Assembly: GCA_002329325.1 (NCBI GenBank)
Contig: DCTX01000026.1
Location: forward strand, 183,917-245,537
Length of the DNA stretch: 61,621 bases
Source: Anaerolineales bacterium UBA1429
GTDB taxonomy: Bacteria > Chloroflexota > Anaerolineae > UBA1429
Direction of reading: 5' to 3'
Shown here: one piece after another, positions 22,413 through 24,060 of the stretch
Layout of the letters: the number at the start of each line of letters is the position of its first letter
How positions within the stretch are numbered: position 1 is the stretch's first letter
Notes under the pieces: generated by a model
Seen by the model: the letters and a program-made list of their open reading frames with translations, nothing else
Databases searched by the model: none
What the model was told of the DNA's origin: nothing
Made by a program: the position numbers and the translations under genes

Positions 22413-23267
22413 GTGTACAACTACCTTTCGCCTGTTGACGATGGCTTGGCCATGCGGCCCGCTGGCCCCTGGGCCAAGGAGAAGCTGGACTACCTGAATC
22501 GCTACATCGCGGTCTTTGAGACGGCCATGCGCGACACATGGCGCGAGCGCAACTACATTGACCTTATGGCGGGGCCCGGCAAAAACCGGGTTCGAGAGAC
22601 TGGCGAGGTGCTGCTGGGTTCGCCTCTGCTCGCCCTGACGACGCGTTACCCTTTTACCGGCTACCACTTTGTGGACCTGAATGAGGCCAATATCGTGGCG
22701 CTGCGAGAGCGCTGTCTGGCAACTGGGTCGGGAGCGGCCATACGCGCAGTCGTTGGAGACTGCAACACCGAGGCCGACACCATCGTGGATCTGCTCAGAC
22801 CCACGGCCCACCGATCCCTTAACCTAGCCTTTCTGGATCCCGAGGGGCTGGAATTGCAGTGGAACACGGTGGCCAAGCTAGCCTCGCTCCCCCGGATGGA
22901 CCTGGTCATCAACTATCCTGAGGGGGGACTGAATCGACTCATGCGCAAAGTCTACAAAGCAACGCGGGAGACATCGGTGGACCGATTCTCTGGCGACCGT
23001 CAGTGGCGCGATGTGTATCGCGCATGGATGACATCGCGGCGCCTTCCTGTGCACCGGCAGCTCATAGACCTCTATAAGCGCAAACTGGCCGCGTTGGGCT
23101 ACGTCGAGATCCACCACTTCGAGGAACCGCTGGTGCGCAACACGATCCGCAGCGCTCCTCTGTACCGGCTGCTGTTCGCAAGCAAACACCCTCTCGGGGA
23201 CAAGTTCTGGCACGAAGTCACGCGCCGAGATGTCTATGGCCAACGCCGCCTGCTCGAGGCCCGCTAG
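22413..23267 (+). CDS. tcmP: Three-Cys-motif partner protein TcmP (TIGR04474-like)
   Basis: GTG at 22413, 4 nt after GAGGAGGA (22401-22408). Motifs: WAKEKLDYLNRYIAVF, YIDLMAGPGKN, GSPLLAL, FVDLNE and AFLDPEGLE. It lies immediately upstream of a DUF5131 gene, the family's signature context. Confidence 0.75.
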   Translation: MYNYLSPVDDGLAMRPAGPWAKEKLDYLNRYIAVFETAMRDTWRERNYIDLMAGPGKNRVRETGEVLLGSPLLALTTRYPFTGYHFVDLNEANIVALRERCLATGSGAAIRAVVGDCNTEADTIVDLLRPTAHRSLNLAFLDPEGLELQWNTVAKLASLPRMDLVINYPEGGLNRLMRKVYKATRETSVDRFSGDRQWRDVYRAWMTSRRLPVHRQLIDLYKRKLAALGYVEIHHFEEPLVRNTIRSAPLYRLLFASKHPLGDKFWHEVTRRDVYGQRRLLEAR

Positions 23268-23337
23268 CGTGGCGCACGGCATCGCGTGATCGTAGGCTGG
23301 GAATCGTCGTTGGGTGCTGTGTGAAACGGGGATAGCC

Positions 23338-24060
23338 ATGAGCAATGGGACAGCCATCGAGTGGACCGAGGCGACCTGGAACCCTGTCACCGGCTGCACC
23401 AAGATCAGCGCAGGTTGCCTGCACTGCTACGCCGAACGTATGGCGCGCCGCTTGCGGGCGATGGGGCATCCGAACTATGCCAATGGTTTCGACGTCACGC
23501 TTCACGAGCATCTGCTCAAGTTACCCCTCGCCTGGAAGAAACCGCGGCGGGTATTCGTGAACTCCATGAGTGACCTGTTTCACCCGAATATCCCAGATGC
23601 GTTCATCCACGACGTCATCGCCGTCATGCGCCAGGCAGACTGGCATACTTTCCAGGTGCTCACCAAGAGGGCGGAGCGCCTGGCGAGGATGGATCGGGCC
23701 ATTGACTGGCCCCCCAACGTGTGGGTCGGAGTCACCGTGGAACGACAAGACTATGCGCATCGCGTTGACGCCCTGCTCGCCACGGACGCCCGGGTCAAGT
23801 TCGTCTCGCTAGAGCCGTTGTTGGGGCCGCTGACCGCTCTGGATCTGCGCGGCCTGGACTGGGTGATTGTAGGTGGCGAATCCGGACCGGGGGCGCGTCC
23901 ACTGCAGGAGGAGTGGGTGTTGGACATACGCGATCGTTGTTCCGACGAAGGTGTGCCCTTCTTCTTCAAGCAGTGGGGCGGAGTCCGCAAGAGGATGGCA
24001 GGCCGGTTGCTGCAAGGACGCACCTGGGACGAGATGCCCCAATGCGAGGTGGCGGCATGA
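23338..24060 (+). CDS. DUF5131 / phage Gp37-Gp68 family (three-Cys-motif) protein
   Basis: [33 protein letters not shown] carries a C-x6-C-x2-C motif. Also present: [33 protein letters not shown] and PFFFKQWGG. Confidence 0.85.
   Translation: [240 protein letters not shown]

Follow-up and report, generated by a model that had tools for sequence, protein, structure and literature searches.

A two-gene module encoding the proteins TcmP and DUF5131 occupies positions 22361-24118 in a 61,621-nt stretch of contig DCTX01000026.1 of Anaerolineales bacterium UBA1429 (the window; all positions follow the numbering of the whole stretch). It is firmly established that this module is horizontally inserted and self-contained, and equally that it belongs to a known but uncharacterised family pair that has already been catalogued. 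The window copy consists of tcmP (22413..23267, + strand), which codes for a 284-aa protein predicted to have an RlmJ-like class I methyltransferase fold, and the DUF5131 (Gp37/Gp68) gene (23338..24060, + strand), which codes for a 240-aa protein resembling the radical S-adenosylmethionine (SAM) superfamily. The two proteins are tentatively proposed, with a probability of about 0.4, to carry out a two-step modification of one nucleic-acid base that is used in conflicts with mobile elements.

Insertion of the tcmP and DUF5131 genes

A sister locus (L179) was found via homologs of the RlmM-like protein that flanks the pair. One of these, P0242, is 71% identical to the window protein, and on the contig that encodes it (Ga0334883_1000591 of JGI 3300033177) the genes are arranged as in the window, namely LarA, GH20, two DUF4342 genes, a 253-aa gene, MtaB-like, PNPOx, RlmM-like, a 355-aa gene and a methyltransferase. 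L179 is collinear with the window over at least 12 kb (15329-27176), with 77–85% nucleotide identity for window positions 15329-22360 and 76% for 24153-27176. Collinearity stops exactly at the PNPOx stop codon (22360) and restarts at 24153, inside the RlmM-like gene; window positions 22361-24152 (1792 nt) correspond to 45 nt in L179, where the RlmM-like gene directly follows PNPOx with 17 nt between the PNPOx stop and the following ATG. The pair is a precise 1.8-kb indel that is missing from the nearest relative on record. Since L179 is collinear on both sides but lacks both genes, the pair is not part of the core genome, which agrees with the horizontal acquisition proposed in an earlier reading of the DNA made from the sequence alone (the sequence-only reading). 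The flanking marker protein is present on 19 contigs, two short ones of which end before the junction. The MtaB-like flank was also tried as a means of finding sister genomes among GTDB species representatives and was rejected, the best matches being 49–52% identical with 0 shared neighbours.

The base composition of the inserted genes sets them apart from their surroundings. Together they have 61.7% GC as compared with a window mean of 67.7% (sd 2.3, equal-length windows), which places them in the lowest 2%. The GC content at third codon positions (GC3) is 0.747 for tcmP and 0.768 for the DUF5131 gene, the two lowest values among the 43 open reading frames (ORFs) of at least 100 aa in the window (mean 0.864, sd 0.032). 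The lower GC and the deviating codon usage noted in the sequence-only reading were thus both recovered, although the 82% GC line with which the pair had been compared is a local extreme, the flanking 500-nt windows having 71–73% GC. In related loci the GC content of the pair ranges from 39 to 66% with a median of 49%. Taken together, the precise indel, the low GC3 and the GC content of the relatives indicate acquisition from a lower-GC donor.

No duplicated target site and no convincing direct or inverted repeats were detected at the junctions, either in the window or in the alignment with L179; the search for target-site duplications suggested in the sequence-only reading hence returned nothing. 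There is no tRNA anywhere in the window. The scanned proteins encoded between 14.4 and 28.2 kb included no integrase, transposase or phage structural protein, in agreement with what the sequence-only reading had reported for the vicinity of the pair. A prophage, an integrative element and a transposon were considered and rejected, as the window has no tRNA target, the junctions have no convincing repeats and no integrase or transposase was found in the scanned 14.4–28.2 kb interval.

The gene coordinates, start codons, 70-nt gap and peptide motifs quoted in the sequence-only reading all agree with the sequence and its translation. On reading the sequence, tcmP starts with GTG at 22413, preceded by the ribosome-binding site GAGGAGGA at 22401-22408. 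The DUF5131 gene starts with ATG at 23338, 70 nt past the tcmP stop at 23267 and on the same strand, leaving an intergenic spacer at 23268..23337 (+ strand). The left junction of the inserted segment (22361..22412, + strand) comprises the ribosome-binding site and a GC-rich hairpin and has no counterpart in L179. The hairpin (stem 22361-22368 / 22374-22381, 8–9 bp) lies directly 3' of the PNPOx stop and within the inserted segment. It is not followed by a T-run and therefore is no classical terminator, and neither a terminator nor a promoter consensus was found in the left junction. The right junction (24061..24118, + strand) cannot be aligned to L179. A perfect 13-nt inverted repeat, GCGCTCGCGCCAT / ATGGCGCGAGCGC, was also observed, in which 22373-22385 pairs with 22538-22550 inside tcmP.

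The last gene 5' of the insertion encodes a PNPOx-like protein (21983..22360, + strand; PF01243, E 1.7e-12) and has a GC3 of 0.84. On the other side lies an RlmM/FtsJ-like 2'-O-methyltransferase gene (24119..25180, + strand; GC3 0.88), the product of which matches PF01728 and scores 80.9 bits with NF008734, under the cut-off. Besides the pair, this 13-kb stretch contains three genes for SAM-dependent methyltransferases and one MtaB-like radical SAM gene (14400-15206, 20444-21931, 24119-25180 and 26401-27177). As the sister genome has the same methyltransferase and MtaB-like genes, their clustering is older than the insertion. The only other stretch of the window as GC-poor as the islet is at 7400-8400 (58–60% GC), where the genes have a normal GC3 of 0.83–0.86. 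Low GC there reflects amino-acid composition and not foreign codon usage; hence codon choice deviates in the TcmP/DUF5131 pair only.

Features of the TcmP and DUF5131 proteins

TcmP scores 158.5 bits with TIGR04474 (cut-off 53), residues 19-270 covering profile positions 1-259 of 263, and in the window it has the PF07505 neighbour by which TcmP is defined. The DUF5131 protein scores 345 bits with PF07505 (gathering threshold 28.9) over profile positions 2-243 of 243. The identities assigned to the two proteins from sequence are therefore backed by scores far above the thresholds. The profile hidden Markov model scores, the GC content and codon usage, and the presence of the pair in relatives, on any of which the sequence-only reading could have failed, were all examined and none refuted it. 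The products of the two adjacent genes also both match the PADLOC candidates PDC-M41 and PDC-M30. TcmP matches PDC-M41A (6.9e-26) and, more weakly, PDC-M30A (1.5e-6), and DUF5131 matches PDC-M41B (3.7e-117) and PDC-M30B (5.1e-113), as well as phrog_2045. PDC systems are unvalidated candidates identified through 'guilt by embedding'. With these entries and a subgroup at RadicalSAM.org, the pair is already catalogued; the sequence-only reading had named it the best candidate in the window for an undescribed system. Within PDC-M41/PDC-M30, the window copy has no distinguishing sequence; it is solitary, chromosomal, located between housekeeping genes and devoid of the internal promoter/operator found in most close relatives.

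The TcmP translation carries WAKEKLDYLNRY, a motif I-like YIDLMAGPGKN, GDCN and a motif IV-like FLDPEG. A model of the protein was obtained with AlphaFold2 (AF2) at a mean predicted local distance difference test score (pLDDT) of 86.6. In a Foldseek search the best matches to this model were structures of E. coli RlmJ (E 5e-8, template modelling (TM) score 0.54–0.56), followed by generic class I methyltransferases, and the top 14 matches were all RlmJ or its Legionella homolog (E 5e-8 to 1e-6, TM 0.49–0.57). RlmJ, formerly DUF519, is the E. coli 23S rRNA m6A2030 methyltransferase. It shares with TcmP the pattern Y-[IL]-D-x-x-A-G-x-G-[KR] (YLDTHAGAGRY in RlmJ and YIDLMAGPGKN in TcmP), and a conserved Lys residue in the N-terminal helix and Asp residues at the positions of motifs III and IV appear to be common to both. 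Its motif IV has been reported as 164DPPY167, and both K18 and D164 are essential for activity (PMC3814359). K24, G56, R100, D142 and Y251 are invariant in 114 diverse TcmPs, and D50, G54, P55, D116 and N118 are conserved in at least 90%. These TcmP residues correspond by order and spacing to K18 (motif X), motif I, D143 (motif III) and D164 (motif IV) of RlmJ, the assignment of K24 and D142 to K18 and D164 being derived from motif order and spacing and not from a residue-level superposition. The two proteins differ in having DPEG (TcmP) and DPPY (RlmJ) in motif IV and are 12–15% identical, and RlmJ acts alone whereas TcmP always occurs with a radical-SAM-like partner. Judged from its sequence and model, TcmP probably binds SAM and a base, yet is not a standard N6-adenine methyltransferase.

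In the DUF5131 protein, the triad C20-x6-C27-x2-C30 is invariant in 57 homologs, as are C201, GGESG (179-183) and FKQWGG. The triad had been likened to radical SAM sites in the sequence-only reading, and its spacing is indeed accepted as a variant at RadicalSAM.org, where DUF5131 forms Megacluster-5-2 with the CX6CX2C motif beside spore photoproduct lyase (PMC9477430). It differs from the canonical CX3CX2C, and PF04055 gave no match at E<=0.01. A match to TIGR04471, 'radical SAM mobile pair protein A', with E 7.6e-22 and 77.9 bits against an equivalog cut-off of 355, is indicative of homology only. The AF2 model (pLDDT 80.1) shows alternating beta and alpha elements, consistent with a barrel. 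Its fold matches are weak and include spore photoproduct lyase (TM 0.52, E 0.06), NifB (E 0.04) and, likewise weakly, phage radical SAM proteins. DUF5131 resembles radical SAM Megacluster-5 (spore photoproduct lyase, MJ0683-like) in being curated there, in its GGE-type motif and in a model whose beta and alpha elements may form a partial barrel, but departs from it in the non-canonical Cys spacing and in being only weakly similar in structure to spore photoproduct lyase. Among viral structures, DUF5131 is best matched by BFVD A0A1B1IPY1 (475 aa, 31% identity, TM 0.73 over the DUF5131 part), a fusion of DUF5131 to ~230 extra residues; this fusion partner might hint at the function.

Conservation and genetic context of the pair in relatives

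In a survey of 87 related loci, tcmP was located 5' of the DUF5131 gene on the same strand in 78. No third gene recurs, as no neighbour was present in >5 of the 87 loci when 377 flanking ORFs were clustered. The commonest neighbours, rpoD, dnaG and nuoA, all come from one lineage (L121, L156, L164, L168 and L170), in which dnaG-rpoD flank the pair on one side and the nuoA-D operon on the other; here, too, the insertion is between core genes. The two proteins also co-diverge (mirror-tree correlation of pairwise identities r = 0.67, reached in 0 of 999 permutations). The description of the pair as self-contained is upheld by both results.

In distant relatives the order and orientation of the genes vary while adjacency is retained. 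On an Acetobacter plasmid, DUF5131 comes first and is followed by TcmP, and on a Deinococcus plasmid and in Gordonia phage PantheRoc the two genes are convergent. On a Burkholderia pseudomallei plasmid (NZ_CP009155.1; L091, 4610-7792), two TcmP paralogs of 423 and 274 aa flank one DUF5131 gene, and the surroundings are those of a Tn7-like element with TniQ, TniB and Mu-transposase genes.

Among 5.8 billion proteins searched, the closest TcmP is 71% identical to that of the window, and most relatives are 57–64% identical and come from metagenomes. The DUF5131 relatives are better conserved (67–83% identity); an exact-sequence look-up found no record of the window DUF5131 sequence itself. TcmP forms ~3,349 clusters at 50% identity (E<=1e-3), and DUF5131 has thousands of homologs, about 70–75% identical across phyla. 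A TcmP-like gene is present in 5 of 50,697 phage records, and the subfamily of the window protein in 2 of 2.9 million viral contigs. When a phage carries DUF5131 alone, it is often a longer protein encoded among early/replication genes, and in one case the gene abuts that of a DNA methyltransferase. The C-terminal extension of one such long protein (Gordonia phage Bakery gp64) was considered as a possible TcmP and rejected, as it shows no resemblance.

The spacer between the two genes is itself conserved in relatives. A promoter of the form TTtACA-N5-GAACATTTGTGC-TATnAT was found in 55 of 67 distinct TcmP-DUF5131 spacers, taken from related loci L002-L173, and ~5 more contain close variants. 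The element is of the sigma-70 type and near consensus, with a 17-nt spacer and a TGn extended -10, and is located ~50 nt upstream of the DUF5131 start. Its conserved part is near-palindromic and includes GAAC-N4-GTGC, one base from the Gram-positive LexA box GAAC-N4-GTTC. The element was absent upstream of tcmP (0 of 66 distinct regions; background rate 0.165 per kb). The window spacer (23268..23337) has no match to it with up to 1 mismatch and contains only a GTGCTGTGTG remnant at 23314-23323. Judged from its sequence, the window copy no longer has the DUF5131-specific promoter/operator common in relatives, and the window DUF5131 gene is therefore probably co-transcribed from upstream of tcmP. 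No Rfam family was found in the spacer, the only hit being a chance snoRNA match inside the PNPOx gene.

Several relatives of the pair adjoin defence systems. In a BREX locus (L004), the pair is found between a C-terminal fragment of PglX and PglZ/BrxL. Replacement of PglX by TcmP and DUF5131 was considered for this locus and ruled out, as the 85-aa ORF just upstream is the C-terminal fragment of PglX; the pair is therefore cargo between that fragment and PglZ. Between the PglX fragment and TcmP, the same locus (474-7972; also L005) encodes a 2066-aa AAA_22 protein and a 433-aa protein without a PADLOC match, which may represent another embedded, undescribed system. One relative adjoins a type I restriction-modification (R-M) system, and one is near TIR, ABC-ATPase and DUF4011-helicase genes. 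In Gordonia phage PantheRoc (L087, 3501-6657), the TcmP-like gene is directly downstream of the immunity repressor gene on the same strand, with the convergent DUF5131 gene beyond, and the pair lies inside the integrase/repressor cassette, a position typical of prophage-expressed genes. In S. meliloti, a tcmP has been listed beside the Hna defence gene, and the two are upregulated together. Models for R-M, AbiE, Hhe, Mza, DRT or other PDC systems are matched by about two dozen of the 226 ORFs that lie up to 4 kb from the pair in ~60 loci.

The cognate nuclease characteristic of R-M systems was not found, the window flanks being PNPOx and RlmM-like genes and no third gene recurring in relatives. 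In this respect the pair, which is horizontally mobile and sometimes located between pglX and pglZ, resembles orphan DNA methyltransferases and the cargo genes of BREX or R-M loci. It differs from them in having two enzymes instead of one.

Proposed function and alternative explanations

The RlmJ-like fold of TcmP and the classification of DUF5131 beside spore photoproduct lyase are consistent with a pair that acts on nucleic acid, as proposed in the sequence-only reading. In the two-step modification proposed here, TcmP would bind SAM, recognise the target base and flip or methylate it via Lys24/Asp142. DUF5131 would bind a [4Fe-4S] cluster through C20, C27 and C30, cleave SAM to a 5'-deoxyadenosyl radical, and perform C-H chemistry, either on the same base or on the methyl group. 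DNA might be favoured over RNA as the substrate, and the resulting covalent mark would serve as self-marking or protection in conflicts between host, phage and mobile elements, a role suggested by the BREX, R-M, prophage-immunity, Tn7-like and other defence-gene contexts of relatives. A role in defence or anti-restriction, as had been suggested from the sequence, is a guess. Wybutosine synthesis, in which the methyltransferase Trm5 acts before the radical SAM enzyme TYW1, offers a precedent for this order. The analogy is that two enzymes using SAM work on a single nucleobase; there is no sequence relationship, and Trm5 and TYW1 are housekeeping, tRNA-acting enzymes that are not encoded as a mobile gene pair.

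A number of observations weigh against this proposal. TcmP has no Pfam match and thus matches no Pfam methyltransferase model. In its motif IV, D142-P-E-G replaces DPPY, with G145, which takes the place of the aromatic residue, invariant in close homologs and DPxG as the family consensus. A profile comparison of TcmP with RlmJ was tried and was not significant (probability 0.4%), and hence the link between the two is one of fold and a local motif I match only. Given DPEG, the missing Pfam methyltransferase model and the insignificant profile similarity to RlmJ, TcmP may not transfer methyl groups at all. Neither single-sequence nor profile searches linked TcmP or DUF5131 to a solved structure, and the DUF5131 model has no PDB match below E 0.001. 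No paper was found that gives a function to either protein, nor biochemical or genetic data or a solved structure for either. DUF5131 occurs in about 180 phage records (181) without TcmP, as compared with the 5 that have a TcmP-like gene, and is therefore able to work without it. Many relatives, like the window copy, are located between housekeeping genes, and the two dozen defence matches are a raw count, not an enrichment. There is, moreover, no conserved nuclease or reader partner to explain the purpose of a mark.

The defence-island contexts also fit with a viperin-like defence based on small molecules, in which DUF5131 would make an antiviral nucleotide analogue and TcmP would modify its substrate or product, or with an abortive-infection system of sensor and effector. 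This explanation is unlikely, though it fares best among the alternatives. It is favoured by the listing of the pair in PADLOC as PDC-M41 and PDC-M30, and PDC-M30 carriers are somewhat more often phage-resistant (68.8% of 32 P. aeruginosa strains), which is a correlation only. A highly conserved radical SAM partner would also suit a small, fixed substrate. The PDC systems are, however, explicitly unvalidated, the nearest fold to TcmP is a nucleic-acid methyltransferase and not a nucleotide kinase or transferase, and many copies are found in housekeeping contexts.

A further reading takes the pair as a novel two-gene system, based on radical chemistry, for self/non-self discrimination. TcmP would write a mark or prepare the base, and DUF5131 would either make an undescribed hypermodified base or attack unmarked nucleic acid in a radical-SAM 'restriction'; the near-palindromic operator before DUF5131 would be a control point or even the recognition site. 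This reading is rather unlikely.

Still less probable is an addiction module resembling R-M or toxin-antitoxin systems, in which DUF5131 would use radical chemistry to damage nucleic acid that lacks a mark, while TcmP would provide the protective mark or otherwise neutralise its partner. Here the strongly conserved promoter with its near-palindromic spacer, found before DUF5131 only (55 of 67 spacers) and not upstream of tcmP, would serve as an operator that delays or limits the harmful partner, in the manner of C-protein or methylation-sensitive R-M promoters. The strict pairing with no third gene, the mobility and patchy distribution, and the embedding among R-M and BREX genes point in the same direction. 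Such a role is less easily reconciled with a DUF5131 protein that is ~70–75% identical across phyla, unlike typical fast-evolving effectors, and that many phages carry by itself. In the window copy the operator is missing, yet both genes are intact, and there is no sign of toxicity.

Repair or tolerance of DNA damage, in which DUF5131, being related to spore photoproduct lyase, would undo a lesion with the help of TcmP upon SOS induction, is very unlikely. DUF5131 belongs to the RadicalSAM.org megacluster of spore photoproduct lyase, which also gives its best PDB TM score (0.52), and GAAC-N4-GTGC in the spacer is one base off the LexA box GAAC-N4-GTTC. The fold match is not significant (E 0.06), and the right half-site is consistently GTGC and overlaps the TGn extended -10, so that promoter constraint alone may explain its conservation. 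The window copy lacks the LexA-like box, and the patchy mobile distribution and the embedding in BREX and R-M loci would be left unexplained.

Mobile rRNA-modifying resistance genes are a known class, and a module for rRNA or tRNA modification, e.g. for resistance to ribosome-targeting antibiotics like Cfr or Erm or for niche translational adaptation, would agree with the nearest fold, RlmJ, which methylates A2030 of 23S rRNA, and with the location of the window pair between genes for an MtaB-like tRNA methylthiotransferase and an RlmM-like rRNA methyltransferase; but those neighbours were already adjacent in the sister genome before the insertion, hence the context is coincidental and uninformative on function, and, as the RlmJ active site resembles those of DNA m6A methyltransferases and prophage-immunity, BREX and R-M contexts are atypical of resistance genes, this role is as improbable as repair.

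TcmP and DUF5131 are widespread, strictly paired enzymes with no known reaction, and the window copy leaves that picture unchanged. The window copy does offer a concrete structural hypothesis, in which an RlmJ-like Lys/Asp site whose motif IV reads DPEG instead of DPPY is partnered by a CX6CX2C radical SAM enzyme. The promoter/operator conserved in relatives is directly testable, and L179, as a close relative with an empty site, provides a natural comparison with and without the islet. Should the pair prove to be a new modification or defence system, it would add new enzyme chemistry to the conflict between phages and their hosts.

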